From Lytechinus pictus (taxonomy: Eukaryota): DNA of 64,000 nucleotides. The position numbers and the translations under genes are program-made. The stretch's first letter is position 1, and each line of letters starts with the position of its first letter. Where the stretch lies: contig NC_087251.1 in the NCBI RefSeq assembly GCF_037042905.1, positions 12,030,001-12,094,000 on the forward strand. The letters run 5' to 3'. The notes beneath the pieces are model-generated. The model was not told the origin of the DNA, searched no databases, and saw only the letters and a program-made list of their open reading frames with translations. This document shows, in pieces, positions 3,799 to 62,362 of this stretch.

Positions 3799-4112
3799 GT
3801 ACGGTCCCACCTCCGACTCCTTGCGCGAACCATGCTCTAAACACATTGACTGTTGGGGCAAAAAGTACATCATTTATAAAACATTTGTCTTAATTTTTAT
3901 ACCCTCGCAAAGGCTAAACACATAGATTTCCTCGCGAAATACATGTAGATAGGGCCCACTCACACGTATTGCGAGGTTAGTATTAGTATACTAACCTCGC
4001 ACCACGAACCGCGTTTGGCAGTGGATTTCTAACTAGTGGGTCGCGCGTGCTGGGATCTCACTTCTTGGGTCCACAACACACGACTTCTATGGCTTGAATT
4101 TTCGGGGACATC

Positions 4113-4220
4113 CCGATAGACCGCGGGTCCGATAGACCGCGGGTCCGTTAGACCGCGGGTCCGATAGACCGCGGGTCCGATAGTCCGCGGGTCCGATAGA
4201 CCGCGGGTCCGATAGTCCGC
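4113..4220. repeat. 16-bp tandem array, about 6.5 units (left TIR of copy B)
   Basis: CCGATAG(A/T)CCGCGGGT units directly visible. Confidence 0.95.
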
Positions 4221-4303
4221 AGTGTGTGTCAAATTATGATCAGATATATCAAATGTCATCGAGAGGTCCAAAGGTCAAATGATACGAGGCCATGGGGTTC
4301 TAT

Positions 4304-7300
4304 CAGGTGCGGATCCATGGGGGGCCGAGGGGGAACTGCCTCAGCCCCCCCCCCCACCCCAGCTCAAAAAAAAGAGGGGGGGGGGGGAGAGGGGAAAAGG
4401 GAGAAAATAAAAAAAAAGAAAGAGGAAGATGGGAAAAGAAGAGAATAGAAAAGAGAGTACGAAGGAGAAAGGAAGAGAAGAAAAAAAGAGAAGAAAAAGA
4501 GGAAAGGAAAGACAAAGAAAATGGGAAAAGAAAAGGGGAAAGAAGAGAAAAAAGAGAGGAGGGAAAAGGAAGAGAAGAAAAGAAAGGAGAATGGAAAAGG
4601 AGGAAAAAGAAGAAAAAAAAAGAGGAAGGAAGAGAAGAATATTTAAATAGAGGAAGATGGGAAGAAAGATAAGAAAAAAGAGAGAGGAAGAGGGGAAAAG
4701 AAGAGAAGAAAGCGAGAGAGAGGGGAAGGGGGAGGGAGAGAAGAAAAAAAGATTAAAGAAAAAAAAGGGGAAAGGAAAGAAAAGAAAAAGGGAAAAGTAA
4801 AGGGGAAAGAGAAAAAAGAGGAAGAGGGGAAAAGAAAGAAAAGAAAAGAACGGAGTAAGGAAAAGGAGGAAAAGAAGAAGAAAAAAAGAGGAAGGAAGAG
4901 AATAATATTTAAAGAGAGAGGAAGATGGGAAAAGAGAAAAAAAAAAGAGTAAGGGGGGAGGAAGAGAAGAAAAACGAGAAAAGAGAGAGGAAAAGAGGGA
5001 AAGAAAAGACAGAAAAAGAGAAGAAAAGGGGGAAAGAAAAGATGGGGGAAAAAGAGAAGAAAAGGGGGAAAGGAAGACAATAAATGAGAGAAGAAAAGGG
5101 GAAAATAAAGAGAAGAAAAAGAGAGAGAGAGGAGGAAAAGAAGAGAAGAAGAAAAGGGGAGAGGAAGAGGGGGAAAGAAAGAGAGAAAGAAAGAGAAAGG
5201 AAGGAAGGGGAATGAGGATAAGAGAAAGAATAAAAGAAAGAAATGGAGATGGGAAACGGAAGAGGGAGATGTTGACCTGGACGTCGATTTGATGGCACCA
5301 AAATGACGTTCGAACTATGGGGCGCCGAACTGATGTTTGAACTGGAGGGGGGCGCCAAATTAATATTCGAACTAGGGGAGCGCTAATTTGAATTTTGACC
5401 ATATGGCGACAAATACATGTTTCAGAGAGGGGGAGGGAGGGCAAAGTTATATTTCACATGGGGGCGCCAAGTTTATGTTCAACCGAGGGCGACAAATTGA
5501 CCTTGAACTTAGGGGGCTTAATGCAAATTCATTGTTGACCGGGGGCGCAACATTGCTCGTATTGCCTGTTTATAGTGAAATATATGTCCTGCCCAAAAAA
5601 CTTAAATTAATGCGGCTGAATTAAAATATCCCGTTTTTACGATAACAGACAAAACCAATGTTTTTTAGTTTTAAGTCTGTTTAGCGAGATAGATACCCTG
5701 TTCAGGGTCACAAAAAAGGGTTATTATCAAATTCAGCTCGCGCTACGCGCTTGCAATATTTGATTAATGAGGTATGCATCTTCTGCATCAATCCCACATG
5801 TAAGTGTTAGTGTTTTTCAAGTCAACATACATTGGCCGATCCAGGGGGCAAAGATTCCCCCCCCCCCCCCATGGTGGCGCAAAAAAGGGGTAAGAAACAG
5901 AAAAAAAGAGAAAAAGGACAAGCAATTAGAATAGGAATTATACCTTAGTCTTTCTTAAGTCAGTATATAAAAAAATTGAGCTCGCGCTTCGCGCTGGCAT
6001 CAATAAATTGTTTAGTTATATACGCATCCCGACCTTACAGTTTTTTATGCGAACGAGAAGCAAAAGCTGAAAATATTTGATATTCTAACCTGACAACTGA
6101 AAATGTATTTTTCATTTCATCAAGTTTTCAGCTAGCGCTTCGCGGTCGCATTCATTTCTTAATAGATATGCATCGTGTTCATCATAACAACTACTAACAT
6201 AGGCGGATCCAGGCGGCCCGAGGGCAACCTCCCCCCTATTGACAGAGCAAATAAATTGGGAAAAACGGGGAAAGAAAAAAAGGGGGGAAGAAAGGAGAAA
6301 AAAAAGAAGACGAAACATAACAGGAGGAAGACGAGTGAATAAAATAAGGTCAGGAGAAGACTTGGAAAACAATTTTTGAAAATATTTAATGTCACTATAT
6401 TAAAGTTTCGCTCGCGCATCGCACTGCCTGTTCGATGAAATACATATCTTGCTCAATATGCTGATATGTAGTTTAAAATATCAAATTTTGATATCAATAT
6501 ACAAAACATAATTCAGCTCGGACATCGATCTTTCATTATTTTGTTTTATTTACCAATTTATGTTTTTAAGTGCTCTGGAGAATGTCCGTTTTATGGTTTG
6601 AATCAACATTTACAACATTTTGTGCGCTCGCACTATTTGCCAAGGAGGCCTACCTATTGTCTTTTTGTATTTCATATAAGATTTTCTAAATATACCTTTT
6701 CAGGTGTCTCGATTGTAAAAAAATAATAATAAAGGCCTATGAGCTAGCGCTGTGCGCTCGCATTTTGATTGATGAGTTATGTATACCTATATATTAATTC
6801 TATAACAAACTACTTAAATCCCCCCATTAAAAAATTCCGGATCGCGATTTGCGCTCGCATTATTTGCTAAAAATATATCAACCAATGAATCCTATTCATG
6901 ATTACAAAAATACTTAAAATATCCAGTTTTCAGGCCTCATGCACTGTCAACAAATTTCACACGCTAGGTTTAACAGATTAATAAACATTAAATAAAATTT
7001 GTATGAATTCATAATAACTAAATTGTCCCTTTTTCAGAAATAAATATCGACAAGTTTTAGGAAAAGAAATAGAAGACAGTCATCATTCGTATATGATGAC
7101 AAAATGTCCTTAGGCCTAAAATGTCTCGATCCTAGGTCAAAATAATAATAAAATATCAGCTCGCGCTTCGCGCTCGTATTATTTATATAGTGCTATCAAA
7201 TTTCACTATATACACAGTGCTGTAAACAGTGCTTAAATTGACCCTTTTCATATTGGAATTTCAAATATTATTTTCAGCTCGGGCTCTGCGCTCGCACTAT

Positions 7301-10807: not shown

Positions 10808-11115
10808 TTTGAATTATTATTGTTAATCATGAACAATAATGCCTCTCTCTTAGCTTCTTGGACCAGGATACCTCTCAATCAATATCGTTCACTGCATGTG
10901 TGATGCATGTGGTGTGTATACTGTAGCTCTAAAAATACACGTGCGCCATCTCTTGTTGAACCCTGTATGTATACGGTATACAAGTCGTCATATATATCAT
11001 ATCGATACTTGAACTAAAATGGCACCGTTCTGATTGTTCTCCCCTGGAGTATCGTGATGAAAAGTGACAATTTTCGACCTGTTTTCTTAGAGCTGGGGAA
11101 AACTTTTGTTGGAGA
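10808..11115. promoter_or_regulatory. Putative bidirectional promoter and 5'UTRs between XPO5-like and ZNF318-like
   Basis: 308 bp between divergent ATGs; contains CACGTG (~10938) and YY1-like CGCCATCT (~10944) and AAAATGGC (~11016). Function is inferred. Confidence 0.6.
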
Positions 11116-12393
11116 ATGAGAAGAGGATATTCTAGACCGCCCATGGGGCGAGGATATGCTGGAGGACGTGGAAGGGGATTCGAGCAACATCGTGGTGGAT
11201 TTCGAGGAGGTGCGTCTAGGCCGACGGGCATTGACAGCCATAGTGGAGCAGGTGGAGCTCAACAACGTGGACGTGGGAGTAGCGGCTACATACCGGACAC
11301 CGGACCGCTACCGTCATCAGGCATGAACGATACGCGTCCTTCAGATCCGCGGAACAGAGCGCGGATAATGGGTGAAAATGAAATTCCACAAATGGGACCT
11401 GACTTTAGTGGGACTGGGAGTGTACAGGATATGAATAGAAATGTAGGAAATTATTCTACAAGTGCAATGTATGTAGGCCAAAGGCAAAGTGCAGAATTTG
11501 TAGAACAAGGACAAATGCATATGCACAGTCACAGGCCAGCAGGACATGGTTTTACACAAATTGCAGGGACGACAGGGTCTGGGCAAAGTGGGGTAGGGAA
11601 TTATCCAAGCCAGTACCATGCTGTGCAAGGGCCAGGTGATGGCAGGTTTGAAAGGGAAAGTTACATGGAAAGAGAAAGAAGGCAGGGCCCAGGGCAAAGA
11701 GATTATTATCCAGATATGGGAAGGTCCGACAGATACAAATCAGATTTTAAGAGCCCTAATGAAAGCAGTCCAGAGTATTTTTCAACAAATTATCCAACAA
11801 CCGAGTTGGAAGAGGAAGAATATAGAATGTATCAAACAAGGGAAACAGATGATAGGGGGAATAGAGAAGGAAGTCCGGAACCATTCCAAGAAGATGAATT
11901 TGAATACGAATGTGAGAATCCTGATTCTCAATCCGGTAATAAACGAGAATCACAATCCGATATAGATCTTAGCCCTGATCGCAGTGGCCGTAGGAGCAAC
12001 ATGTCTGATATCGAATTGACCCCCAATGAAAGGGGTCGTGAGAAAAACCTTTCTGATATTGATTTAAGCCCTGACCATGATCCAAAAGTTATTAAGAATG
12101 AAGCTCAAGGGAGTATTCAAGGCCCAAGATCAAGTAGTAGGGACTTGCAAGATAGGAAAATGGATCAAATGTCTAGTCTAAGAGAGGAACGGGATCCACA
12201 TAGGAGTGGGTCTGCACTTCAAAGAGATACTGAAAGAGGGTTTGAAAGAATGCAGAGGCTTGGACCTACATATGGAGAGAGATCTATGATGGAAGATGCC
12301 AGAGAACGTGAATCTAGGTCAAGAAGTTCCTCACTTCCAAGAGATCAGCAAGCACCTGATCTCAAAGGACGGGAGCCCAATGCGACAGATGTG
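11116..12393 (+). CDS. ZNF318: ZNF318-like exon 1 (RGG-rich N-terminus)
   Basis: Long ORF; donor GTG|GTAATT, phase 0. Confidence 0.8.
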
Positions 12394-13357
12394 GTAATTC
12401 CCAATGTGCTGTGCATCTATCATAAGTTAAACTTAGATATTGACTGGCATTTATGGATCAGATAGTTTTAAAAATAGTGTCATTCATTTTTTTTTGTAAG
12501 TCCATTCTTAAGTTGAAATTGATTGGATGCATTCTGGAAGTAAGATTTGCTAAATAATGACGATTGTCAACTTGAAAATTAGGAGTTTTCTTAAAGCTCT
12601 AATAATTGACCCAATTGTTAGCAAGTTTTGTTCTTTGTATTTCTCTTTTAGAGATAGGCCTACTCTTGGCAACTTAGATAAGTATTAAACCTTTAAATTA
12701 CAGAAAAGTTAACCTTGCATGAATTAAAAAAAATCAAATAGGCCTAAGTCATCGCGATTTTCACATATTTTCTAATTCAGATTTCGCTTGAATGGGATTA
12801 AAAGAAAATTATGTTGGCACTTTGCAGAGTTACCTGATTGGTTTTCAGGTTGAGTTTTTGTAGTGCTATGATGACCCATAGACCAACTGCAGGCAATAAA
12901 ATAGATTTTTTTAGACTACTTTTTGCATTTTACTGCCTAAATGATCTACATTTTACGAGCTTTTAACTCAATGAATGGGCATTTTCCAGGGCTCTTTCAG
13001 TAGGATGAATGTGAAAGAGTTTGTTTCATGAGACCGCGGTATCTTGATTATATTCAGTTAGTCAAGGATTGGTTTGCATATTCCACTGTCTTTGAAGGGA
13101 ACCTAGATAAATACAGCATAATTATATTTAATAGCGTAATATAGTTATGTGTACAATGATGAACTTGAATATGGGCTGCTTTGACAATGAAATCTTTTAC
13201 CATGCTTTTAGCTGTAGTATTCAGCTTTTACAATACTGTATAGATGTGATCATAGTGCCAGTTGATTCTAAATTTCTATATTTAGGGAAGATTACAAATG
13301 GTACAGAAGAAGTAAAAGCATAAATAGGAAACTAGCACAGGCACGTATAAGCACATA

Positions 13358-13840
13358 TTATATGACACCTAGATAGATCCTTGTCATTTGATTGGTAGCT
13401 TGACGTTGATCATTCAGTCCATTTTACAATGATATCATCAATGGTGCAATTTTGGATCCATGCAATTTTGTCCATTGCACATGCGTGCTAAGACCACCAG
13501 CAGTACATTATGTAAAAACACAATCGTGTTTAAACTGCTTACAGTGCGCTTGTTTGTATGTGACAATCAACAGACCGTGTTTGCACTGATGATGCACTTT
13601 TGCATTCAAGTTTAAATATAAGATTAAAAGCCAAATGACAAGGATCTATTTTTAGGTGTCGTATAAAATAAATAATGAATGTTCTTTTTCATTCATGCAA
13701 TGGACAGGATACTTCTATTCGGTGAAATATGAAATGAGTCATCCATTCAATGAGGCGTAGCCGAGTTGAATTGATCATTTCATCTTTCACCTCATGAAGT
13801 ATTCTGTCCATTGCACTCTGGAACATTCATTATTTGTATA
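13358..13840. mobile_element. Double-palindrome non-autonomous element (Crypton-like layout)
   Basis: IR1 ~13360-13390 / ~13633-13664. IR2 ~13662-13752 / ~13762-13840, centred on GAGGCGTAGCCGAG. No clear TSD; family assignment tentative. Confidence 0.5.
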
Positions 13841-14275
13841 CTTTTTACTGAAATGGTAATGATTTGGAGAAATAAATAATAAAAGAACAGCATATTTTTT
13901 TAAGTACATTCACTGTATCATATCAAAACAGTTAAAATTTGATCATAGTTGCAAGATTAAAAAACATTTGCTGTAAATTTCATTTTCTTGAAATGTTGTT
14001 TCACTCCATTATATGCGATTTTTTTTATAAATCTGTACGTAAGAGAAGTGTCATGATCGGTATATACTTTGGAGGAGATCTCATGAATTTTAGGGTGTTA
14101 CAAATAATAAATTCGGAGTGTTCAATTTCAATTGAAAATAATGCTATGCTCAATCATTTTTCATCTTTCTTACAATGCTATTCTTTTGGCAGATTGCACT
14201 TAACAAAAATTAATGAATAATGCATAAAGAAAGCACATTCTCACATTTGTGTTGTCTTCAATATATTCCTAATAG

Positions 14276-14772
14276 GAGATGATGATGAAACAGGAAGATC
14301 CAAAAACTTCACTTGTCATAACTGTGACCAATGACCAATGCCCAGAGAAGGATGGTCCCCATTCTGCTATTGACCGTCTTGGACCAGCAGTCCCTCAGAC
14401 GAAGGATGCAGCAGAAAGACTTGGACCACCTGTCTCTGCTCCTGCAGATCGTCTTGGACCACCTGTCCCTTCTGCTCTGGGTGCTGCTGCTAATCGTCTT
14501 GGTCCTTCTGTGGTAGCTCCTGCAGAAAGGCTTGGGCCATCAGTAGCTGCCCCCCAAGAGCGATTGGGTCCTTCACCTAATGTACCTACTGATCGTTTGG
14601 GCCGTCCTCTGGAGACGCCTGCTGCAGATAAGCAAGCATTTGCTCCTAAGGCTCACGCTTCAGCAGCAGCTGCCTCAAAAAGGTCAAGGACGAAAGACAA
14701 GCTACATGCCATAGCTGATGAAGACTTTGATCTTTATGCTGATATTCCACCACCAGAGAATGAAGAAGAAAA
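14276..14772 (+). CDS. ZNF318: ZNF318-like exon 2 (RLGP repeats)
   Basis: AATAG|GAG acceptor; AA|GTAAG donor, phase 2. Confidence 0.85.
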
Positions 14773-15087
14773 GTAAGAAAATGCATCAAGTACTTTTTTA
14801 TTTTGGTGCAGCCTTCATTACTGTTTTTAACGAATCATAAACATGGAAAAACACATAGAAATGTTAAGGGATGAAATTTTGTACTAATAGCATTTAAATG
14901 TATATATGATTTTTTTCCCACCCCCTCATACATTACTTGCTAGTCAAGATCATCATTTTCAAAGTATCCGTATAAGACGGTATTAAAGTGTAAATTTTTT
15001 TCTTGTGGGGGGGTGGTGTCTTTAGATTATAGATAATGATTCAATGTATTTATGGTGAATGATTTCTTGTGACTGACTTTTTTTCAG

Positions 15088-18000
15088 AATCCCAGTGAAT
15101 GAGCCAAAACAGGATCTTGTCATCACCTTTCAAGCACAAGACAAACCTGCACCTGTTACAACTGCAGCTCCAAAAATGTTTCCGGCAGCTCATGTCATGA
15201 CTGGTCCAACTGTTCATGCTCATCCAGAAGCAATGCCAAAGGAAGTGGACCCACATAGCGAACAAAGCAGTGGGAAGTCGCAAGATGCCTCTGAACCAGG
15301 AAATGAAGTTCCAGCAGTGTCTGTTGTAACTATTCCTAAGTCCAAATGGGACAGTGATGATGAAGGTTCCGATAAACATCTTATTTTGGTACCAAAATCT
15401 GCCAAAATGCCCGAACCGAAAGCTGAGATTGTAAAGACTGTCAAAAAGAGAGACCCATCTTTACATATGGGACAGATTGTTAAGGATGTAAAGTACAATA
15501 AAACTGACACAGCTAAATTACAGGGATTGATAGGTGAAACTAAGTCAAAGGAAGAATCAAAAGACAAATCTAAATCTGACGATAAACAAAATAAATCAGA
15601 AACAAAGAAAAAGGGCAAACCCAAAAGACGAAATAGAAGCCTGAGTCCAAGTAGAAGTAGAAGTAGAAGCAGGGAAAGAGGAAAGAGAGAAAAACATGGG
15701 AAAGATCGGCACAGAAGAGATCAATCAGATAGTAGAGAGAAAAGAAGGAAAGATTCTAGATCAAATAGCAGAGAGAGAAGAAGAAGAAGATCTAGGTCAG
15801 CTAGTAGAGAGAGGGGTTATTACAGACCAACACTTTCATTCAGGGGAGGTAGAGGGGGAACCTACCTAGATGGTAGAAGGAAATATCAAAGAGATTATAG
15901 ACATGATAGGAGAAGAAGTAGATCAAGGTCTAGGTCGAGAGAAAGGCGCCAATCAAGGCATGATAAACGCAGAAGTAGAAGTAGATCCAGTTCGTATTCT
16001 TCATATAGTAGCAGCAGCTCAGGGTCAAGCTCTAGCTACAGTTCCTCAAGGTCTTCAAGTAGGAGCAAGTCTCCTGAGAAAAGTAAAAAGAAAGTGAAAG
16101 ATACCAAGTCAAAGGGTGATGGTAAAAGTACTCAGAAGGAAGTTGGAAAGGCAACATCTGGTGAAGTACCAGCTGAAAAAGTTGAGTCTGAACCACTTAA
16201 AGTACAAGCAGAGAAAACATATGATATATTCACTGGAAAGCATGTTGAAGAGGAACCTCCTAAGCCGGGTAAAAAAGGAGATACTTTTGCAAAAGCTGGC
16301 GGGCTGCCTGATCCGCTTGGATTAAAGCAACTGACAAAACCAATGAAAAGCAAGGTGTATTCTGGACCAATCTATGATATGCCCCCATTGACAGTAACTG
16401 CCTCAACTGAACCAGAGACGAAACTAACAGCCCCTTTGCCTCTTGCTGCTGCAAAACCTCTGAAATCAATTTTGAAGAAGAAGAAAATGGATTTGGATGT
16501 AAAAGCAGAAGAGCCCACAGCAAGTGATGCTCCAGACCCACAGGGACCAGCAGTAGCAGCAAGTGCACAACCTGCCCCAAGTGTTAGTGGTCCTGATTTG
16601 GCTCAATTGTCATCAGTACTAGCTAATCTCGTTCCTCAAGGTGACCAGACCTCTCAGTCCTTAGCAACTCTCCTCTCTGCAATTAGTGCTCAACAACAGC
16701 AGAAACAAGAGCAAGAACAACAGCAACTGTTGCTGCAGCAGCAGCAACAACAAAACCTTATTCAACAACAGCTCCAACAACAACTATTTCTTCAGCAACA
16801 GCAGCAGCAACAACAAAGTTTGGGATTTTTCAACTCACAAAATACTTCTATTCCTGGTCTGGGAAATCAACTTGAGTTCCCTGTAGGTGCCCAAGGCCTA
16901 TTTGCTCATGGTGCTATTGGAGGACAACAATCCTCCATACCTGGTCTTGATGTAGGCTATCACAACCCGCAAGTACTTGGAGCTGGAGGGATAATGACTT
17001 CATCTGTTACTGGTCTTGGAGGTATACCTTCAGCGGCCATGAATTCCTCAATCCCAGGACTTGGAGATACTTCCCATCAGAACACACAGCCACAAGCATC
17101 CCAACAACCTAATCAGAATCTAGCAACCATTCTCCAGCAGTCTGGTCTGAAGATGACACCCGAGTTGTCAGCTGTACTTGGAAAGAAACAGCCAGATCAG
17201 TCTTCTGAAGGATTCAGTGGCCAGTCAGCATTCCAGAGTGGGGCAATGCCATCTCCACATATTCCGTTCCTGTCAGGGACAACAGCAGCTACAGAAGAAG
17301 AGGATAGCTTCTTATATGGTGAACCTCAGCAGAGTTCACAATATGCCAATCCAAATCAATACATGAACCAAAGTCAACAAGCTGCATTCCAAACTCAAGA
17401 GCAGCTCTACTCAGGACAAGTACAAGCATCTGCACCAGATGAATATATCCCAGAAGCTAAACCTGTAACAACTCAAGCAGGCTCTTCTGTAGATTCTAAT
17501 CATATCCAAAAAATTCTCTCTGCTATTGGCTTTGACTTTGACATGGCCAAAAAGGTTGAACTTGAAAAAAAATTGGGAATTCATGAAAATAAAACTCAGC
17601 CAAAATCTGTAGAACAGCTAGTGCCAAAGAGTGATTACGAACAAGTATCAGAGTATGTTAGTGCACAGCGAATTCAAGCTCAGCAAAGTCAAACTTTGCA
17701 CGCAGCAAAAAATGAAGGTGCCACTATTGCTTCAACTTCTTCTGAATACAAGATGGATGGTTTGAATCAAACTGCTTCTTTCCTTGATACTGGACTACAA
17801 GTGCCGCCAGTCAGCACTGCTGAGGACAAGTCTACTAAAAAACTAAGTAAGAAAAAGAAAAAGAAAGCAGAAAAGAAAAAGCTGAAGGAAGAGAAAGCTG
17901 CTTTAAAAATGAAGTCTTCTGAAAGTGAAAAACGGCCAACAAAGAAGGGACTCAAAGATGACCTGGAACAGAAGGAAAGAAGAAAAGGTGGCTCTAAGAG

Positions 18001-18943
18001 TCCTTTAACGGAGCCTGTGAGTGATGAAGAGCTCGCTCATGATACACCTAAGAAGCATCAGCAGTATGCGGAACTTGCCAATATCAAGATAAAAGTTGCC
18101 CAAACACCATCTTCATCAAGATCAGAGTCAAAAAGAAGGATAGTGTTGCTTCCTGATACACAAGAAGATGACCCTGAGGAACAGGAAGGAAAGAGACATG
18201 TCACCAGAGAACCAGCTGGTGGGAAATGGTCGGCACAGGAGAAGCCTTATCAAGAAGGAGATTACTACAAGCCTCAAAGTTGGGAGATGGCAGAGCGTAG
18301 ACGAATAGAGGAACAGATAAGGATGGAAATGCAAATAAAAGAAGAGAAAGAGAAGGAGAAAAGGAGAAAGGAGATGCTGAAGAAAGAACAAGAGTGGCTG
18401 ATGAGAGAGGTTGCCTTGAAGACAATGGAAGAAAAGATAAGGAGGGAAGAAGAAAAGCTACTGCAGGTCAAGGAAATAAATAAGCGTCAGGAAGAGAAAA
18501 TACGAAGGGAGGAAGAAAAGCTCATACATGATTGGGAATTAATGAGGAGACAGGAGGCAAAGAGACTGGATGCAGAAAAGTCTGGTGAAGCACGCAGACA
18601 ACAGAAGCTAAGAGAAGAAAAAGACAAGATCCAGAAGAAGTTGGTACTTCTCCAGAGAGCGCTTGAATCATTGAGGAAGCAGCAAGGAGACCTGATGAGG
18701 CGCATGAAGCACTCAAAGGAGGGACACAAAGATCCCCAGATTGCGCACAACAGCAAACTACAACAAGAGATTTCCGACCAGATCAGATCTCTGAGGAAGG
18801 CCTATGCAGATGTTGGAACCAAAGGATATGACAGGGATGCTGAGAAAAGTGGATCAGAAAGCCGCGACGGAAAGGAACAGCGAAGCTTGTCTACAGACAG
18901 ATCAAGCTCAGGCAGAGATGACAGAGACGGGGAGAGAGAAAAG
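15088..18943 (+). CDS. ZNF318: ZNF318-like exon 3 (RS domain, polyQ, coiled coil)
   Basis: TTTTCAG|A acceptor; 1299-aa ORF; AAG|GTATGG donor. Confidence 0.9.
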
Positions 18944-20093
18944 GTATGGTGCAAACTTCTATTATTGAAGTTATTCAAATGTTTGAATACTTGATATCTA
19001 TATGTAGATGGAATTCGATTGATACTTGCAAAAGTTTATTTTGAGCTTCTCATAAATCTATGATATATTTGATGAAATTCAATTTTAAAAGAATATTGAT
19101 ATTGAAACAAAATGGATATCAATCCCTAAAAACAGCAAGCTTTTCATATTATATTTTGGAAAGAAAGACCAAGATGGCTATGAATTAAAGTAAATGGAAA
19201 ATGCTCAGCAAGTCTGATGGTTCAATTGAAAAATTATGTTCTAAATCAAATATCTGTGTGTGTTATACCCATTTTTTGCAAACATCTAGTTTCTGCTTCC
19301 TATACTTTCAATTAAAATCTTGCAATTTGATTGATTTTCTCTGTTGATTTTGATAAATAATTTACCAAGTTTTTCTTGATAGAAGCATTCATTGTTTATG
19401 TTTGAAGTAGATTTATTTACTTTTCTTCAGACCAGACACATCATAGTGTGGTTAACGTTGGTTTGAACTGATAGAAAAGTGTATGGTGTTGATTATTGAA
19501 AAGAATAATTTCACTTTAAATTTTATACTTTCCAGCTCTTTGATGTCCTAGATGACCTTTTTTTTTTACTCCCTGTATGAATTCTCACTGGAACATTTCT
19601 GCCTTTTATGTAAATTATGAAGAAAAAAAAGCATTTGTTAACATATATGTCTGTTCCTTGTCTGCCAAGGGGTATTACCAGCTAAGGCCAGAGAAGAGCT
19701 ATTTGATGGAAATGAAAGAAGGTAAAATTTATACATCATGTCGTCTAGCAGAAAGTTTAAAGAACAGGTAATACAATCTTGTGTATCTTGATATCCTGCC
19801 TTTTTTATTTAAGGTGATTGATAAGGTAGGATCACCCTTTTGTGAGCTTTTTACCAAAGTCAAGAAAAAATACACCCTTTGATAAGTTTTGAGGTAATTT
19901 GCATGTTGAGTAGCATTTAATAGTTCTATTTAAAACTGGAAATAAAGTTGGGTTTAATAATTTTGAAAACTCTCAAAGCTAGAGGGTGATCCTTCCAATC
20001 ACTAAATTTGAATTTGTTAGTTGAATACCTGCACAATTTTCTGTATCCCTTTTAAACTTTTTTCTCCTTTTTATATTATGTTGAATATTGTAG

Positions 20094-20294
20094 AGTTCAT
20101 CTCATCGCAGCAAGCGGAGCTCAGCTGACTATAAGGAAGAGAGGGAACGGGAGAAAGAGAAGGAAAAGGAGAGCAAGGCTCGGTTCCAGTTCACCTACTT
20201 TGATGATGGAGACCATTGGTGTAAAGTTTGCCTGAAGGCGTTGCGAAATCTGAACGAGTTCTTCATTCATCTTCACTCAAAGAAGCATATGAAG
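20094..20294 (+). CDS. ZNF318: ZNF318-like exon 4 (matrin-type zinc finger 1)
   Basis: SSSHRSK...HWCKVCLKALRNLNEFFIHLHSKKHMK; donor AAG|GTAAG. Confidence 0.9.
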
Positions 20295-21909
20295 GTAAGA
20301 TTGTTTTTCAGTTTTGTTTTTGGCCTTTTAATTATTTTGAGGAGCTTCAGCAGTACCAGTGAGTATACATGCATTTTATAAAAATTTTTTTAGATGCTAC
20401 TATATCAATTATCATAGTTTTGACTGGGTCATAAAATTTTAGCATTTTATGAGCTCACTCGAGCTTGATAAAAGATATGAGCTAGCAATAATGGTTTATG
20501 ATAATCTTGCTTGAATTTTCTGAATTTGGAAGTAAATAACATCACCTGTTGATTCCCCTTGGGATAGTAATTGACTTCTTAAAAAGAAAAAGAAAGAAAG
20601 ATTTAAACAGCATACATTTTCAAACATTGGGAATATGAAATGTGTTGCCTAAGTTTGGGTTTTTTTTTTTTTTGGGGGGGGGGAGGGGGTGATATGAAGA
20701 ATGCCCCCCTTTGAGTTTTGTCCTCAGTTGATGTCTTTACAATTTGATATCTTTTTGGAGATATCCAATTGCATGAAGAATTACAATTTTACATCCTTTT
20801 TAGTTTCTAGACAAGCTTTACCCCCTTGTTATTTTTAAAATTATTATTATTTATTTATCGTGCTCATGTAGATGAATGATAAGAAACAAGAGGCTAAATA
20901 CAGTTTTCAACTGAATAAAGATGCTGTTTGTTTGCTATAAATATCCCGATTATTCACAAACGACCCCATTATGATAGTGAAGCACTGAGGAGTTGCTCTT
21001 GAGTGTTCATGGTCAATATAAATTTCTTAAGGAATTACAAGTGAAATGTAAGATCTTCTACATGGCTGAAGTTATGCATTTCAGAACAAATATATTCTTT
21101 TAGCTGTCACCACTGGATATGAGTATTAATTAGTTGTCGACCTTGTAACACAAAGATACTGTCAAATGTTCAATTGAGCGTAACTGTAAGTGTGTACTAT
21201 ACAGCGTACCAAAGTTAGAATCAATTGTAAATATACATCCCCTAATTGACTTGCTGGGGAGTTTTAATATTTAGAGACTTGACTTTTTATGAAAATAAGA
21301 ATGTGATTTTTTTTCCTTATTAATGCTTTCAGTTTTTGTCAATTCTTGAACCAGATTTATTACTCAGGTTTGGTTAATTCTGGTTATTGATCAGTGAGAA
21401 TTGTAAGATTGGCATGCTGTAGAGATGGGACCACCCCCTGTTGAGCATTGACTAGGAAATAAAAAGAGAGCTGAATATCGATGATGCTCTTCTACATTAT
21501 TTTTTTAGATGAAGTGTGTGTTACTAAGCTTGTCATATTCTTTTAGAATATTACAAAGTAGATCTAACCTAGATAGTCAGATACAAATGAAGCATGACCT
21601 TTGCTATACATGTAATTCTATATTGTCTATTTTGCTGGCTTGATTTCATGCATCAGTGTCTATTTTGCATTTCAAGTTACAGACATGTCTTTGTGAAAAT
21701 AATATTTTCTCCTTTATATAAGCCATTTATCAATGTATATAATAGAATGATGATATTCACCAGTGTGGGTATGTAATTCAACAATGCTATTCATGTCTGT
21801 TTGGTGTGTGTTATAGCATGTTGCAAGTTAAACATGATTTTGAATATAGCCATTGAGAATGTTATGTGGATTTCTATTGAAAGAGAGAGTTTTGATGTAT
21901 ATCTTTCAG

Positions 21910-22006
21910 TTGATTGATGCTATGGATAGACCATGGATGTCAAGTGAGGCCAAATCTGAGAAATCTGGAGGATCAACAGAAGGTCTCATCCCTGCACCTA
22001 TAAAAG
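21910..22006 (+). CDS. ZNF318: ZNF318-like exon 5
   Basis: TTTCAG|TTG acceptor; LIDAMDRPW...APIK; phase-1 donor. Confidence 0.88.
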
Positions 22007-22580
22007 GTAAATTCTTACAATTCAAATTTATGCTTCCACTTTATTACCAAAAATGGTGTTAAGAACAGTTATTGAAGGCCCTGTCACGTACTCCCTTTCT
22101 ATACTTCTATACTTTTAGCCTTTTATCTAATAATTTTTGTCAGATGGTGTCAAACAGTCCAAAATTCAATATTCAGGAGTTAAAAAATAGGTAACCACCA
22201 ATTGTCTGGTTGTCCATAAACCAGATGAAGGGCAAGTTTTAAAAAAAAATATGTAGACATATGCATCAGTTTCTTAATTTTTTTGTTAACAGTACATGTA
22301 TGTGATGTGGCCTTTATGGTCGCAGAAGATTGTGAAATTAAGCATATCCTCTTTACCCATTGCCTTCTGTCTTTGAAAAAAACAAGGATAAGTGTGGAGT
22401 CTTGTCCTAGTTTCTCCAAGTTCCATCCCTATTGTGTCTTACAGGTAGATTACACCTTATTCAAGTATTTCAACTTTGGCTACATGAAAAGTATGAAGTC
22501 TGACTTCCCAACTTTTTATTGTGTTTTACCTATTACTGTACAAGATTTATGATCAAGAACTTATTTTTTTTTTTAACCAG

Positions 22581-22699
22581 GAGCCGAGTTCATGATGCCA
22601 GTGAATGGATATTACTGTCGTCTTTGTAAGGTTTTCTCCGGTGATGGTATTGCTGGGATGGAACACATGAAGGGCCACAGTCACAATTTTGCATATCAG
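22581..22699 (+). CDS. ZNF318: ZNF318-like exon 6 (matrin-type zinc finger 2)
   Basis: AEFMMPVNGYYCRLCKVFSGDGIAGMEHMKGHSHNFAYQ; donor CAG|GTAAT. Confidence 0.9.
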
Positions 22700-23222
22700 G
22701 TAATTTCATATCCTTGTCATATCTTTGTCAGTATAAGAGAAACTTGTGGACACAGTGGACTAATCTTATTCATATTACATGCATTTCCATGATATGGAAC
22801 TACCACTGTAGTAGTGAAATTTTGCAATTTACAATCAATGGTAATTCCATAGTTGTATTTGATGTTCAGTTTTTATGCAACAAAGCCTTGGTGATGTTAA
22901 CTTTCCCAGTTCTTAATTCTCTTATGTTTATAAACATTTCAAATTCTTGTATTAGATTTATACTATAACAAGGTTTAGAGGATATTATAATTCCCTCTGC
23001 AATCATGTATCATCAGTAAGATAGAATTACAGGGAATTCTTTTGATAATTCTATGCTCCTAGTCCTATGACATCTCAACATACAATGGATGCTTAGATAT
23101 ATAATTTTTTTTTCAATGTGGAATGTTTGATTAGAATGGGTATTTTGTACTGCTTTCTGAATGCTTGAAAATAATGTAAGGCTGCTTAATATCCTTATTT
23201 ATTCAATGATATATGTTTATAG

Positions 23223-24140
23223 AAACTGTTGGATGAGAACAAGCATTATGAGAAGCAATTAGAGCTGGAGAAAGCTGCATCTTCAACCAATGCACCAATC
23301 TTCACCAAGGAAGAAGGTGACAGGGAGGAGAAAGGAAACAAACGAAAAGCCGAAGAGGTACCTGAAGACAAACAGAGCAAGCAGATAAAGACTGAAGTTA
23401 CAGATGTCAAGGTTTCAGCAAAACAGTCTGGTGGATTCGGAAAGTTCAAGTTTAACAAGGAGCAGGAGCCTTCTGAAGAAGCTGCTAAAGAAGCTGCCCC
23501 AGAAGCACCCTTGGAGCTGAGGAAGGAAACAACTCAAGGAAGCAGTGATGCTCCTGCAAAGAAGGATCCCAACAAACTGAGCATCAAGATTGGTTCCAAA
23601 CGCTTGATTCCAACCACTTTACTACGTGGCAAATCCGCTCAAGGGACACCTACAACTCCTACTGCTGAAGGTGCTACAGCTGCGACTACTACTGAGTCTG
23701 AACCTACTGTAACCATTAGAAACAGGTCAACAAGATCATCAACTTTGGCCCAGAGACCACAACCCATGATTGGTAAAAGACCAACCCGCAGATCCAGAGA
23801 TCAACCCAAAGAGCCTCCTGCAGAAGAAAAAACGATGTCTTCCTTGGATGATTTCCTCCAAGGTACTAGTGGAGAAGCACTTCCTGTAATAAGTGATGAT
23901 AAGGAAGTCAAGGAAGAAAGTCCAGTGAAGAATCCAGAAGGGAAGAAGGAGGAAGTATTTGTTTTGAAGGAGGATGACATTGCCAGTGCGTTCAAAGGAT
24001 TAGAAGAGATGGAGTTCATTCAGATTGATGAAGCGTCTGATGATGAGGCGATAGAGAATCCAGAAGTACCAGGAGGTGAAGCAGATGAGGAAGCCAGCAG
24101 CTTACCAGTTCCAATACCACCACCACCTGCAGATAATTAA
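23223..24140 (+). CDS. ZNF318: ZNF318-like exon 7 (to stop)
   Basis: TTATAG|AAA acceptor; KLLDENKHYE... to TAA at 24138-24140. Confidence 0.88.
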   Translation, partial: KLLDENKHYEKQLELEKAASSTNAPIFTKEEGDREEKGNKRKAEEVPEDKQSKQIKTEVTDVKVSAKQSGGFGKFKFNKEQEPSEEAAKEAAPEAPLELRKETTQGSSDAPAKKDPNKLSIKIGSKRLIPTTLLRGKSAQGTPTTPTAEGATAATTTESEPTVTIRNRSTRSSTLAQRPQPMIGKRPTRRSRDQPKEPPAEEKTMSSLDDFLQGTSGEALPVISDDKEVKEESPVKNPEGKKEEVFVLKEDDIASAFKGLEEMEFIQIDEASDDEAIENPEVPGGEADEEASSLPVPIPPPPADN

Positions 24141-55956: not shown

Positions 55957-56650
55957 TTTTTAGGTGATCTGTCAATCGACAGATCAACTATTAATTTCGT
56001 ACGAATTTTCTTTTTTATTTTAATTTTGAGTTTCGACGCCACTTTGATGACGTCATGATAAAATTAAGGGTCAAATGTGACATGGAATCATATCTCCCAT
56101 CTATACACTATTGGAATATGAAAAAAAATCGGGGGTCAACGGACTTTTTTAAAGAGCTATAATGAATTTTGTATAGGCATGTTTTTGCACATATATTGTC
56201 TATGGTTAGTGCGCGCGCGCGTGCGTGCTGTAAACTTTGATGGAGGCTTATTCCGTTATTACTTGTCGTAAAAGGTTGATCAAGGTATCAAATTATTCAG
56301 AATTATATTATCAATGCATTGGTATAAAGAAAATAGTGACCCTATGCTCTATAGTGCCGTTACGCGCGCGCAAATTTTTGAAATGCTTAAAATGACCTGA
56401 ATCGTACTCTACTTTGGTCAAAAAGTGATTTTGAGCATTTTAAAATTTTGACGCGTGCGTACGCGCGCATCGTGACCTTTACATGACTTTTAATGACATG
56501 GACAGTTGACCCTTGACCTGAAGTTAATGTGATGTAAATATTGTTATTTTTTAAAAATAGATAATGAAGATATGATTGATAACGTGATTTTACAAAATGG
56601 CGTCTAGATGACGTCATGATGACCTTTTGACCTTGATGGCTTGATCTTGC
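55957..56650 (-). mobile_element. Probable HINE-like fragment
   Basis: TTTTTAG followed by hairpin GATCTGTC-AATC-GACAGATC; TGACCTTTGACC-type motifs; right boundary uncertain. Confidence 0.4.
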
Positions 56651-57219
56651 GTCGCGTAACGTTGGGGAAGAACAATAGAAAACAAGATGGCGGCGTAAAC
56701 ATCGGGCAAGTCTCTTCCGTCTATTCATGATATTTTTCTCATTTTTTTTGGATGAATTCTTGTCTAAAAATAAAATCCATAGCGTAGAAATGTCGGAAAT
56801 TAAGTTGTATCCCATGTACATGATTTAGGGCTAGATCTTTTTAGAAAGAAAGTAGAAATCTCGGGGGCGAAAGTTTCAGGTTTTTTGGTGGTACACGCAA
56901 AAGTATATGACGGAAGCCCTGGCTTCGTATGAGAGTGACCTTACGTTAGTAAATGATTTTTACTCTCTAGAAAGTAGAAGCCGCCTGGCTAGGGACGGTA
57001 CTATCACGAGTATAATATACTGTTGTTGGAGCTATCCCCACTGCGTGCAAAGTGAACTTGATTTCCCGTAGAGTGGGGACTGTATCACGAGTATATATGG
57101 AGAGAATCCAAGTGTAAGTGTGTTTCATTTGTGTGTGTTATCATTTCGCAAATTCTCGAGCTGTGCGAGAGTTGGGGACTGTGTTCTGGAGAAAGGAAGT
57201 GATTTTCATGCGTTCTGGT

Positions 57220-58087
57220 CACTCTAGGCGACACCCCAATACTTACCCGTGCTAATAAACTGGGACTCCACTCACGCGCATTTGGGCCGCCCTAGCTTAG
57301 AACTAAGCTTTGTTTTACTAAAAAATAAATCTTGTAATGATTCAATAAATGTTACTTAATAAATTAGTACTGTTAAATCGGTACTCACCGGTTCTTTTCT
57401 TGAATTTTCTGGCAATTTCCCACGCTTCTGGCTTCAATTCTGCGGCTGTTCCTGTCGCGGTAGACAGCTACATATGCAACTTTATTTATAAATAGAGCGC
57501 CCCTTACGATAGTTGTTAAGAACGCGGCCAAATTGTTAGGTTTTTTGCACTGTGTCCAAGGCGTTTTTATTTTGTTTGATTTTTTATTTTTTAATAAATA
57601 TTTTGTTAAATAGCGATTTTTACGTCAAATATTAAATTCATATCACAAAATATTTTTAATTGTAGAAATATATATAATATCATGCAATTATTTATTCTAT
57701 ATATATTTTATAATAAAATTTATAATTGTTGCGGTCTTTAAAAAAGGATAGTCGATCGATCAGGTGATGACTACTCGTATCACGTGATCTGAAAATCAGC
57801 TTCGTACCGCTTTGATCGCACTCGACGGGACCGGACTGACTGCCAAGAAAAGATCGAAAAAGGACTCAAATGTAAGTTTCCCTTTATTTTATAACATTTA
57901 AAGTATAGTTAATGGGTAATTTTTTAATAAATGCTAAACAAATGAGGACAAAGCTTGCATTTTTCGAGTAATAATCACTAATATCATAAAAATACTTGGG
58001 TGCAGGACTTTCTAACCTGTTTTTAACGCATTGTCGCCTATGAGGTCCATACATGTTAATGTTTGGACCTCATTGGTACTAGGAGTG
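57220..58087 (+). mobile_element. CACTC...GAGTG element L, flanked on both sides by GTTCTGGT
   Basis: GTTCTGGT at 57212-57219 and 58088-58095; hairpin 58040-58073; asymmetric subTIR TAGGCGACA. Confidence 0.8.
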
Positions 58088-58797
58088 GTTCTGGTCACTC
58101 CCACTCATGGGATCAATGCATCTCGCGTGCGAAGGATTCATATGCACATGGTGCACGCGAATTTTTCACACCCTTTTTACTAAAATAACTAAGCCATTCC
58201 TTTTAAAATAATGTTTCTAATTGTGCTATGACACTTACCGAACCATATGGATCGTTTCTTGTCTTCTCTTTGGTGTGTTTTTAAGAAAAAAAATGCATTT
58301 TCTCGTGATCTTCACGTAGATACCGCAGGGTAATTGTGGTTGTAAACTTTTGCTTAAAGAGGGCGCGCGATATTATTCACAAGATGTTTGTTTACGGTTC
58401 TGCAGCTTGTACTGCTAGCTGCATTTTAGACGCTCAGCATTATTTTCCTCTTTCTGTTTTTTTTTTTGCTGTCAAGCGGTATTTTCTATTGTAGCGCCAT
58501 CAGCGATAATGAAATGTAAAGAGTCGCCTTGAAATGAAGAAAAATTATGTCACATTAATTCGTTAGTTTGTTTCCTATTTTTTTTCACTTTTTTCTTCTT
58601 CCTCATCTATGATCAAAGGTGAATACCTTTTTTTGATATAGATGTTCTAAAAGCTGGACATTTTAAATATTTTGTTCAAGTAAATAAATCAACAGGATAG
58701 TAATCAAAATGCGATAGAGCTGCCCGAGCTGAAAATTCTGATACAAGGACTTGAAAATAAAACATTCTGAGCACTTTTTATAACCATGATGAGGAGA

Positions 58798-58799
<2 letters not shown>

Positions 58800-58847
<48 letters not shown>

Positions 58848-58901
58848 AAGTTATACATGTACTACAGCTTTGGCAACTCTTTTATTTAAATATTGTGTGA
58901 A

Positions 58902-58941
<40 letters not shown>

Positions 58942-58958
58942 CTTGATTTATTTACGCC

Positions 58959-58993
<35 letters not shown>

Positions 58994-59000
58994 ATGTATA
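58800..59000. repeat. (TA)n microsatellite cluster
   Basis: Three TA runs directly visible. Confidence 0.95.
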
Positions 59001-59839
59001 TGAAATAAGCTAACACGAAAAAAATACGTTTTGGGGACTGTTAAATAAGAATTCATGAGTGGGATAGGTAACTATCTATTCTATTCTTGTTCGTTTTCTA
59101 TTATTATTTGTGTGTTGTGTTTATTTTTCTTGAAGCACCAAAAGGTGGACATGTCCGCTAAGATATATTAACGAAGTCACCATTATTATCACAAGCTAAC
59201 GGATCAATTAAAATGTGAGCGTGAAACGTAAGCTTCTTTTTTTCTTAATTCAGTCTTAACGATACTTTTTCATCATATTTTAAAGGTGAATCTCATGATT
59301 CAAAATGATAAATGCTTGTCGCACGGGCAGAAATAGCGGGACCAATAGTTATTTTCAATATTCCGAACTGCATTCTGGACGTTGTATAAGCGCCTTTGTA
59401 TAACAATTAAAAGGTAGGTCTATTTACCTTACAAATTATGTGAGCGCTGAACTTTTGGACATTTAAACCTCAACAAATTGACATTTTTTAAATATGAACA
59501 ACATCATAAATGTCACTTACAAAAATGATGCCAGCGCGAAGCTCGCGCTTAGAGTTTTTGATATTGATGACAGGACTGTATCTAAATGAAAAATAATGCG
59601 AGGGCATTTGCGCTTAAGATTTAAATTTGGGATTTGAAAAGTCCGACAGATTACCTATACTTTTAAAAGAGGAATGACCTCCAGAATTCAAGCGCGAAGC
59701 GCCAGTAGATTTATGTTGAAGTTTAGACCTAGAACAGGGACGTTGAACCTTTATAATCATGAAAAAGATGGTATTTTTATAAATAAAACATGGGAGTCTA
59801 ATTTTGTTTTAGTGTTAATATTCAGATCTTCAAACTTGA

Positions 59840-60335
59840 CATTTTCCTATCCCCTTCATTATCCCCTCTCCTTCTCCCTTTCCCCATTTTCGTTCTCCCT
59901 TCTTTTCTTCTCTCCCTTTCCCTTCCCTTTTTCGCTTTTCCTTTCCCTTCTTTTCTTTCCTTTCTCCCTCCCCTACTCTTTTCTCGCTCTTTCCCATTTT
60001 TCTTTCCCTCTCCCTTCCCCTCTTCCTTTCTTTTGTTTTCTTTCTATTTTATGGTCTCCTTTTCCCTCTCTCTCCTCTACCTTTCCCCCTCCCCTGATCT
60101 GTCTTTTATTGTCTCTCCTTTCCTTTCCCGCCCCCTCCATTCCCTTTCTCGCTTTTTCCTTTCCCTTCTTTTCTTTCCTTTCTCCCTCCCCTATATACTC
60201 TTTTCTCGCTCTTTCCATTTTTCTTTCCCTCTCCCTTCCCCTCTTCCTTTCCTTTGTTTTCTTTCTATTTTATGGTCTCCTTTTCCCTCTCCTCTACCTT
60301 TCCCCCTCCCTTTTCCTTTCCCTTTCCCTCTGCTT
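59840..60335. repeat. Polypyrimidine tract with an internal ~140-bp duplication
   Basis: ~59952-60094 is repeated at ~60172-60311. Confidence 0.85.
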
Positions 60336-61166
60336 TTTTGTGCAAACATTAACACGAACATCTTGCTTCCTACACACACACACAAACGCCCGCTATCTAA
60401 CACACGTAATGCGAAACAATCGGGACATTATCATTTTGTTCATACATATATATGTATATTTTCTCAATGAACATTTTCATCTATTTAAAGCTTTGAAAAT
60501 GATCAAACAATGATTCCACAGGCGAAATCTCAATGATCATTAGAAAGGTACTTTACCCATTTTCATTTTATGTCATTGTGATTATTCCATACTAAGGCAA
60601 CATATTTTGGATATAAAAATACGTGAAGGATATGTTCCTCTTCTGTTTTATACTTTAACAGAAAACATTTTGTTCAACCAAATTATGATTTGTATTTCCA
60701 AGTTCCATGTAATATTTTCATTGGAAAATCTCTTAAAGGTCAAGTGCACCCCAGAAAAAATTGTTTGAATAAATAGAGAACTATGTTGATTTTTGGTACA
60801 ATTTCCTATTATGCGCCGACGACTTGAATCGAGAATGTTCGATAGGAAAATTTCGCATTTCGATTGTTGTTTGCGTAATTTCCACCGCAGTACGAAGGAT
60901 GACTAAGGACGGACCGAGCGAAGTATCCTGGTTGAGATTTGGAGGTAAGCGATAAAAACACTTTAATAAATAATTTATAATTGCTTTTTGAAATAAACTT
61001 GATCATACGATCAAGATTAACATAGTGGACAAATATTGAAAGGTTTGGCGTAGTTTAGTCCCTCACATTCGTGTGATGGATGAAAACGTCAAAATGCACT
61101 ATGAAATCACATGTGTTGTGCGAGGTTAGTATACTATTACTAACCTCGCATGTTGTGTGAGTGGGT

Positions 61167-62043
61167 CACTCCTAGTACCAATGAGGTCCAACATTACATG
61201 TATGGACCTCATAGGCGACATCAGTAGTATTTTTGGTTAGAAATCTCTGAGAACAGGATATTTATATATTATATCACAAGTACAAGCTATATTCCTTTCT
61301 CTTATTTGAATTATAATTTTATAGTGTAAATGCATCGTTAGCAACAAAAAAAAATGAAAGAAATGAAGGGGAACTTACATTTTCACGGCTTTTTCCTGAT
61401 TTTCTGGGCAGCTGCTCTTCTCTTCTGACTCGCGATCGAAGCTGATATGAAGATCACGTGATTCGCGTTCTCGTCAGCTGATCGGTTGGTTATTCTTTTC
61501 GTCAGACGTTAATAATATATATTTTATAATGCTAGCATTCATCGCTAATTTAGGTGAAAGAGATTGAAGTTAAACAGCGCCAGGTCGGAATCATAATTAT
61601 TTTGGAAGAGTGTATTTATACACTCGATCTCATACCTGACGTAGACGGCGCTATTCAACAAATGCACAATCTTCAATATAAAAAATAAAACAGAAAGAAC
61701 GCCTTGAACACAGGCCAAAATGCCTAACGATTTCTCCGCGGCATTAACAACTATCGTAAAGGGCGCTCCATTTATCAATAAAGATGGATGCTAAGCTGTC
61801 TATGGCGACAAAATTTGCCGCAAATATTTACGAAGAATTGTGAGAAATGGTCTGAAAATGCAACAAAAGAACCGGTGAGTACCGATTAAACATTATCAAT
61901 TTATTTAATAGAACATATTTAATGACTACAATGTAACAATTTCTAGATAATATTGCTTAGTTCTAAGCTAGGGCGGCCCAAATGCGCGTGAGTGGAGTCC
62001 CAGTTTATTAGCACGGGTAAGTATTGGGGTGTCGCCTAGAGTG
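61167..62043 (-). mobile_element. CACTC...GAGTG element R, inverted sibling of L
   Basis: 61955-62043 is the exact reverse complement of 57220-57308; hairpin 61181-61212; followed by GTTCTGGT at 62044-62051. Confidence 0.8.
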
Positions 62044-62362
62044 GTTCTGGTACTGGTAGGTGTTACTGTCAGTTAGTAATAATCCCCATTTTTGGATTTG
62101 GGGACTATATCACGATTAGGACCCTATGCCGCTAATGGAATGAAACATAAAGGAAAATACGTAAACTGAGCGACGATTGGGCAGCGTACGGTATGGAATC
62201 TAAGACTAAGTCTAACTTAACTTTACTTTAGTTACATTCCTCCCTCGCCTCGGGCCTAGGTCTACGTGCTAACATAGATCTGAATACTTGGGACTAAAGT
62301 AAAGAAAATTATTCCTATCCTAGTCAGAGTACGGAGTAGTCCTAATTACAGCTGCGACTTAC

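Follow-up and report, generated by a model that had tools for sequence, protein, structure and literature searches.

How three related transposable elements, each with CAC(T/C)C...GAGTG tips, came to lie directly against one another is the question raised by a 4.8-kb block in the genome of Lytechinus pictus. The block lies in a stretch of 64,000 nucleotides, hereafter the window (C7:12030001-12094000 of the 812-Mb assembly; C-numbers denote contigs of this genome), and its members are here called L, M and R. L and R share one 8-bp site and M is nested 6 bp inside R. Probably three independent cut-and-paste insertions have piled up here at one hot spot that they share. In the following paragraphs we discuss the evidence for this reading and its rivals.

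The 8-bp target site duplication (TSD) GTTCTGGT is present three times, all on the + strand. The left copy (57212-57219) precedes L (57220-58087, + strand), an 868-bp non-autonomous element with an L-type core, a constant 89-bp plain (A) tip and a hairpin (B) tip at its right; the middle copy (58088-58095) is common to L and R; and the right copy (62044-62051) follows R (61167-62043, - strand), an 877-bp element with an R-type core that is inverted with respect to L. The subterminal repeat of L, TGTCGCCTA (58032-58040), is followed by its hairpin (58040-58073; the whole 58032-58073, + strand), and in R the hairpin occupies 61181-61212 and the subterminal repeat 61212-61220; the repeat (TAGGCGACA/TGTCGCCTA) is exact in both. 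The hairpins of the three units lie 14 nt from one tip only, with z-scores of -6.5, -6.3 and -4.9 against shuffles, and the opposite ends give no hairpin signal (z +1.1 and -0.5). L and R are identical over their first 89 nt and almost identical over the final 55, with an interior that has diverged strongly (75% identity over one 257-nt block; about 70-75% overall inside). No credible coding frame was found in L, R or M, the frames of M being of low complexity. An earlier note on this DNA had already described the GTTCTGGT triple, the bounds of L, the inverted R ending at 62043, the CACTC/GAGTG tips, the one-sided hairpin about 14 nt from the tip and the exact repeat of L and R, and all of these hold.

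The position of M had to be corrected. The earlier note placed all three units at the one 8-bp site, which is true of L and R; M has its own 9-bp TSD, GGTCACTCC, inside the tip of R. The left copy (58093-58101, +) consists of the last 3 nt of the shared TSD and R's original tip CACTCC (58096-58101), while the right copy (61164-61172, +) includes the trinucleotide GGT, formerly read as a spacer between M and R, and a second copy of R's tip. Because GGTCACTCC joins the last three bases of the shared TSD to the first six of R, M must have inserted last, 6 bp inside the hairpin-side tip of R. Dispersed M copies start with CACTCATGGG, which places M, a 3,062-bp non-autonomous element of the group with 9-bp TSDs, at 58102-61163 (+) rather than 58096-61163. 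Its hairpin (61120-61149, +) carries in the loop a 6-nt duplication relative to the commonest M form, and the partner of its 10/13 subterminal repeat is the tip of M itself rather than the sequence that follows CACTC; in sister families this repeat is weak. The block had also been likened to a composite transposon; the outer TSD is the shared L/R site and is thus no sign of composite movement, movement as a unit was not shown, and the L-M-R layout recurs at none of the 29 other M loci fetched.

L, M and R belong to real DNA-transposon families with asymmetric ends. Exact motif counts in the genome give 385 plain tips, 643 hairpin-side tips and 183 L-core donors (splice-donor motifs, discussed below) for the L group, 169 copies of a third arm type (T), and 949 hairpins and 1,978 hairpin-side tips for the M group; many copies are 98-100% identical. 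Sixty loci were fetched, the 30 best L matches and the 30 best M matches. Counting only spans with a TSD, which leaves out L027 and the truncated L021-L024, 28 L-group spans carry an exact TSD of at least 8 bp, which is 8 bp long in 23, 9 bp in four and 10 bp in one, the five longer cases being at the level of chance extension; three spans contain a second copy. An exact TSD is found in 21 of the 24 M copies with both tips (19 of 9 bp, one of 8 bp and one of 10 bp). Other M-group members with 9-bp TSDs are F41 (868 bp), F10 (961 bp, at least 40 copies) and a 170-bp mini type, and the range 868-961 bp takes in L, R, T, F41 and F10. Families of the L, R and M types share CAC(T/C)C...GAGTG tips, one plain and one hairpin end, and 5-6 nt of terminal repeat, and their subfamilies are mosaic, the tips being constant, the cores of two types and the arms variable. 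The earlier note had asked whether dispersed copies carry only 2-bp TSDs and whether GTTCTGGT is a constant part of the consensus. Neither is the case: the TSDs are of 8 or 9 bp, and GTTCTGGT occurs at this locus only among the 28 L-group spans.

Scans of metagenome and viral sequence gave no match to the L tip and no viral match; the M hairpin pattern has 26 metagenome matches, none with a TSD-bounded tip pair. Matches in Rfam were at microsatellite level only, far under the gathering scores. No description of the group was found in literature searches, which is weak evidence since Repbase entries fall outside such searches.

Stacking is far in excess of chance. The genome-wide count of junctions proposed in the earlier note reveals nine tip-to-tip junctions within the L group (spacer of at most 16 nt) against 0.009 expected under uniform chance, with none for the reversed-pattern control; an M-group tip is joined to an L plain tip within 20 nt in 10 of 12 matches, against 0.016 expected (control, 1). 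Tip-adjacent insertion is therefore strongly enriched, by a factor of about 1,000 over uniform chance, and a few per cent of copies take part in it. The same note had supposed that the elements as a rule re-target the exact TSD of resident copies, which is not what the spacers indicate: they measure 13, 5, 10, 10, 8, 9, 15, 9 and 8 nt in the L-group junctions and 10, 10, 16, 20, 3, 8, 8, 9, 8 and 2 nt in the M-to-L junctions. Probes of the outer flanks of the nine L-group junctions, which missed one side at four junctions and both sides at one, gave one exact TSD triple, two cases compatible on the side reached and five offset or inside a tip. The triple, at C16:27565770, is the only other locus where a TSD exactly shared by both outer flanks is proven. 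Insertions inside tips or hairpin loops occur at C5:9546974, C3:45027216, L048, L058 and L059, and many insertions lie 3-24 nt inside tips. Stacked units differ in subfamily and orientation, and the triple at C6:7.04 Mb reads as two insertions 132 bp apart followed by unequal exchange. Exact sharing of a TSD is one outcome within a spread around resident tips. The longest stack observed has three units. The repeat-separated cassette arrays also envisaged are not supported, and a cassette-array system was not shown.

Most of the stacking is accounted for by local clustering of roughly 100-fold together with a palindromic target motif. Leaving out the window locus and two duplicate loci, five L-group ends were found in 87 kb of M flanks (0.069 expected) and seven in 81 kb of L flanks (0.064 expected), which puts other L-group ends at 70 to 110 times expectation within 1.5 kb of the focal copy. 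On C1, eight of 32 L-group ends lie within 3.5 kb of an M-group tip, where 2,000 rotations gave 0.46 on average and at most 6. The target motif is GTCWWGAC for L (2.6 bits, 22 un-nested sites) and YYW-GGYYNRRCC-WRR for M (3.8 bits, 16 un-nested sites). A resident tip leaves the duplicated site as good a target as before or a better one (mean scores 3.65, 3.92 and 3.81), and M's target at the junction in this block is in the top 1.1% of window positions by motif score. At 39 un-nested insertion sites (10 nested ones were dropped) the density of short direct repeats exceeds that found 100 bp away (mean 2.8 versus 1.3, p 0.0012), and hot sites thus appear to have been used more than once. Enrichment of CTA/TAG in the flanks is not significant (p 0.16).

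The stack lies in a host repeat (56640-57211, strand not assigned), and sequence related to this repeat flanks three other fetched M loci and contains an M insertion at L050. Position 57176 is where RNA molecules from paralogues of the host repeat begin or end, and they depart from the reference at 57217-57219, from which we infer that transcription starts about 40 bp from the insertion site.

Small duplications are concentrated in the tips of L-core copies. Among 21 such copies, seven events fall in the terminal 85 nt and one in the 794 interior nt, and seven of the copies carry a tip duplication; the first 50 M-group hairpins listed have 24 different loops (hand count). Because actual insertions in tips and loops exist, these duplications are probably scars of excision after insertion there, imprecise end repair being the alternative source of the tip duplications. 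In the right flank of the block (window 62052-62090) there are extra short duplications relative to a paralogue consensus from RNA reads, resembling scars of earlier events. In F41 (L041:552-1419) runs of short duplications occupy two internal positions that in M hold single motifs, which suggests internal hot targets.

A further characteristic of each long unit is an outward-facing splice-donor motif 135-220 nt from each tip. In L these are GTGAGT facing the A tip (57383-57388, - strand), a candidate donor within a 23-nt block that is invariant among five aligned copies, and GTAAGT facing the B tip (57872-57877, + strand), which is used in a paralogous copy. The corresponding motifs of M are at 58238 (-) and 60945 (+), and those of R at 61378 (-) and 61875 (+). 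When L and R are compared, the donor motifs and several promoter-like blocks are invariant amid diverged surroundings. None of the datasets listed as containing the stretch is recorded as RNA, and the RNA evidence comes from two runs, X23 and X24, chosen by species label, about 6% of each being read. In X24, 25 reads depart from L precisely at the + donor (57871), upstream of which the depth is strand-biased (26.9 versus 1.1); next to the minus donors the depth on the opposite strand is low, although one-sided. In X23 the depth at the + donor is without strand bias (15.7 versus 13.3). The consensus of the spliced reads matches the genome exactly once, at the single-copy exon C5:680793, 5.9 kb downstream of the L-core donor C5:674884 and on the same strand. 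An L-core paralogue, the one on C5, is thus spliced as a first exon, and the + donor of the window copy is a putative one.

The favoured explanation may be set out as follows. L, R and M would be non-autonomous members of a young group of DNA-transposon families, mobilized by a transposase that acts in trans and makes a staggered cut of 8 bp (L group) or 9 bp (M group). The families would favour the same narrow, probably promoter-proximal regions of open chromatin and the weak palindromic motif. Either L or R would have inserted first (the order is not readable), and the other would then have entered the duplicated site, improved as a target by the resident tip. M would later have used the target formed by the junction of the TSD and the tip of R. 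The small duplications in tips and hairpin loops would probably be left behind when an element that had inserted there was excised. The stack would thus work much like a double insertion of P elements with nesting at a shared hot spot.

Several observations weigh against this pile-up. The target motif was built from the same few sites (22 and 16) that it scores. The empty site of the block is a poor to mediocre L target, since 43% of window positions score as well, or 10% when the tip is added; the motif alone does not account for this stack because the empty site scores poorly. Regional clustering predicts about one L-group junction against the nine seen (hand arithmetic), and a 2- to 8-fold excess near tips remains after clustering, narrower hot spots and the motif are taken into account. 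The excess of duplications at M tips is weak, with three small insertions at tips and 39 in the interior, many of the latter microsatellite. The conserved donors and promoter-like blocks in non-coding elements are left unexplained, and no transposase is linked to these elements.

The residual excess near tips over regional density is the reason for considering that a transposase bound to a resident end might capture an incoming transpososome and deliver it within about 20 bp, across families. Stacking would then be something that the enzyme actively brings about, a looser form of what the earlier note proposed. The poor motif score of the empty site, the many insertions inside tips and the tip duplications of the L-core copies would all be expected if ends were tethered in this way. 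Against it, only nine junctions are found among 643 L-group ends; in the fetched loci a neighbour is met 67-260 bp away as often as within 20 bp, and the tips themselves hold CTAG-type sequence that matches the target motif. We consider tethering possible and rather unlikely, and the strongest of the rivals to the pile-up.

Conserved donors are unexpected in non-coding elements and therefore suggest that the units derive from a two-gene element or from a solo terminal repeat like that of KolobokP. In the stronger form of this proposal there would be an autonomous element of composite-like build (repeat-INT-repeat), with the 0.87-0.96-kb units as its solo terminal repeats; their two outward donors would splice into two convergent internal genes, for instance a transposase and a helicase. 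This would explain the conserved length (868-961 bp in all five types), the promoter core and the donors. It agrees with the collinearity of L and R, whose interiors are only about 70-75% identical around invariant donors and promoter-like blocks, with the mosaic subfamilies, with the + donor spliced in RNA, and with a DUF6589 match (+) and a DEAD match (-) that are convergent and 20 kb apart on C5. A precedent is KolobokP, whose abundant mobile solo terminal repeats (LTDRs) are of constrained length and whose genes lie on opposite strands, according to the portion of PMC9587614 consulted; if the units here are terminal repeats, they resemble it in constrained length and in the many mobile solo units. 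No repeat-INT-repeat copy was found: the two same-orientation pairs probed as candidates (C3:45.02 Mb and C5:49.85 Mb) are both not composites, one member of each having its own TSD. Two further pairs, of L-core copies 7.5 kb apart (C1:7833101-7841520) and of F10-type tips 7.7 kb apart (C2:34117165/34124887), are candidates for such a composite. The long tip pairs at C1:7.60 Mb and C1:41.35 Mb, which span 11 and 14 kb, proved to be ordinary copies into which other DNA is nested, the C2 copy of the helicase exon has none near it among the tips listed (mini-type tips lay outside that listing), and the spliced exon that was found is single-copy. This origin is less likely than tethering and is held as a doubtful one. 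The same low weight attaches to its fullest version, in which the source would be a DNA transposon of composite-like build, not described before and making TSDs of 8/9 bp; its terminal repeat would hold a promoter acting in both directions and two first exons that splice outward into convergent internal genes, and its enzyme would be drawn to resident hairpin ends. Rolling-circle or single-strand movement of the Helentron kind, with the hairpin as termination signal and the stacks as tandem products, is very improbable, for while L and R show the order of subterminal repeat and terminal palindrome described for HINEs, Helitrons make no TSD in the part of PMC7492417 consulted and the stacked units differ in subfamily and orientation.

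No autonomous partner of these elements was found, and their superfamily is a tentative assignment, with AcademH-like or KDZ favoured. Genome searches for KDZ, DUF6589, P-type RNaseH, RecQ Zn-binding, MULE, Mutator-like PF20700, hAT and DEAD domains yielded none when compared with the tips listed, namely the first 100 per pattern, which run from C1 into C3, or as far as C8 for L-core donors and C11 for the T arm. Our ranking begins with an AcademH-like origin, offered tentatively, and continues with KDZ, which is conceivable; some other or undescribed superfamily comes next as rather unlikely, then a P-like origin as doubtful and hAT as improbable. The earlier note had named Zisupton and AcademH as the nearest candidates, and both remain so, with no link to any transposase found.

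For AcademH, work cited in PMC10045372 (consulted in part) gives a TSD of 9 or 10 bp and a helicase. The M group fits this length (19 of 21 at 9 bp) and the L group, at 8 bp, differs. Two outward promoters would fit a two-gene element. We take DUF6589 to be a marker of Academ. The only DUF6589 family with a mapped end is about 13 kb long, with a 1,689-aa frame and four matches (C5:12271270-12284126 and C5:13.58-13.60 Mb, paired probes). One of its ends reads TAGTAGGCGGCAAG, and the other resembles that repeat but is cut short in the copy that was read; this family finishes in TAG, not CACTC, and in its TAG-ended tip TAGGCGGCA resembles the subterminal TAGGCGACA of L. A candidate AcademH was also noted in the convergent DUF6589 (C5:55936791, +) and DEAD-helicase (C5:55956999, -) matches 20 kb apart, the helicase exon having another copy at C2:8456181.

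Among KDZ elements, as characterized in the portion of PMC12730594 consulted, Zisupton and Dileera have 8-bp TSDs, and Kyakuja has a 7-bp TSD, CA..TG termini and no terminal inverted repeat (TIR). Zisupton and Dileera are thus like the L group and unlike the M group (9 bp), and no long TIR is present here; Kyakuja resembles our elements in having CA..TG tips with almost no TIR, its 7-bp TSD being unlike the 8/9 bp found here. At the one locus that matches KDZ, C1:37903793-37912503, lies a multi-exon gene, apparently single-copy, with a 43%-identical relative at C18:9505131; the 20 kb fetched there contain no CACTC element bounded by a TSD, and the nearest tip among those listed is 92 kb away.

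Drosophila P elements form dimers by double insertion, two elements being separated by one 8-nt TSD (McGurk and Barbash, 10.1101/158386, consulted in part), and prefer promoters and hop locally (part of PMC7776569). L and R are like P dimers in the single 8-nt TSD between them, in the junction (GTCTAGAC here, consensus GTCTAGAG in P), in promoter-proximal hot spots and in CA...TG tips. The combination of an 8-bp TSD with a palindromic GTCTAGAG-like target, a feature of P in the consulted part of 10.1101/158386, is found in the L group and not in the M group. Unlike P, the present elements have a one-sided hairpin, a sister group with 9-bp TSDs and stacking across families; no P transposase is linked to them, and in place of TIRs of 31 bp (P) or 13 bp (the zebrafish element; PMC7776569, in part) they have a 6-nt terminal repeat and a displaced 9-nt subterminal repeat. 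Among 41 genome matches to P-type transposase, the one on C1 that is near a listed tip lies outside that element.

The 8-bp TSD of hAT fits the L group only, and the hAT matches on C1 are at least 21 kb from the tips listed. MuDR/MULE elements make TSDs of about 9 bp; the 17 MULE matches listed include none on C1 or C2, where tips were listed. Helentrons and CMC/Transib, which the earlier note set aside because of their TSDs, are rightly excluded. HINEs and Helentrons have a subterminal repeat followed by a 3′ palindrome and no TSD (PMC7492417, in part). The first feature is shared by L and R and weak in the M group, and the lack of a TSD differs from the 8/9 bp here, for which Helentron/HINE was rejected. 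CMC/EnSpm/Transib was rejected in that its CA..TG termini match (PMC12730594, in part) and its 2-5-bp TSD does not. KolobokP, a composite-like element with RR..YY tips and 3-5-bp TSDs (PMC9587614, in part), differs from our elements in both tips and TSD. Frames of 696-723 aa matching PF20700 occur in long tandem arrays with periods of about 4.35 and 4.46 kb, a size that fits KolobokP multimers, at C5:35.92-35.97 Mb and C8:21.26-21.30 Mb and on contigs C109, C157, C174, C200, C214, C219, C273 and C361.

The window also contains, at 3629-3798 (+), an M-group member of the 170-bp mini type that has a 9-bp TSD; this copy and a second hairpin tip of the mini type (3957-3998, -) lie between or beside two similar, inverted purine-rich blocks (1576-2686 and 3957-5450). 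Large host-gene exons with RS-rich and Q-rich low-complexity frames (465, 166, 1,305 and 305 aa) occupy 11068-24140.

The stacking itself exemplifies a process already known and contributes little that is new. Of possible note is the group as such, which is large (about 2,600 hairpin-side ends), young and unclassified, consists of sister families one base apart in TSD length, and combines a hairpin at one end with conserved outward splice donors used in RNA. An autonomous partner, if found, would place the group and allow a test of the role of the hairpin. Each insertion may supply a new first exon to neighbouring host sequence, and if the units are indeed solo terminal repeats, their thousands of copies would be mobile two-way promoter and first-exon cassettes.

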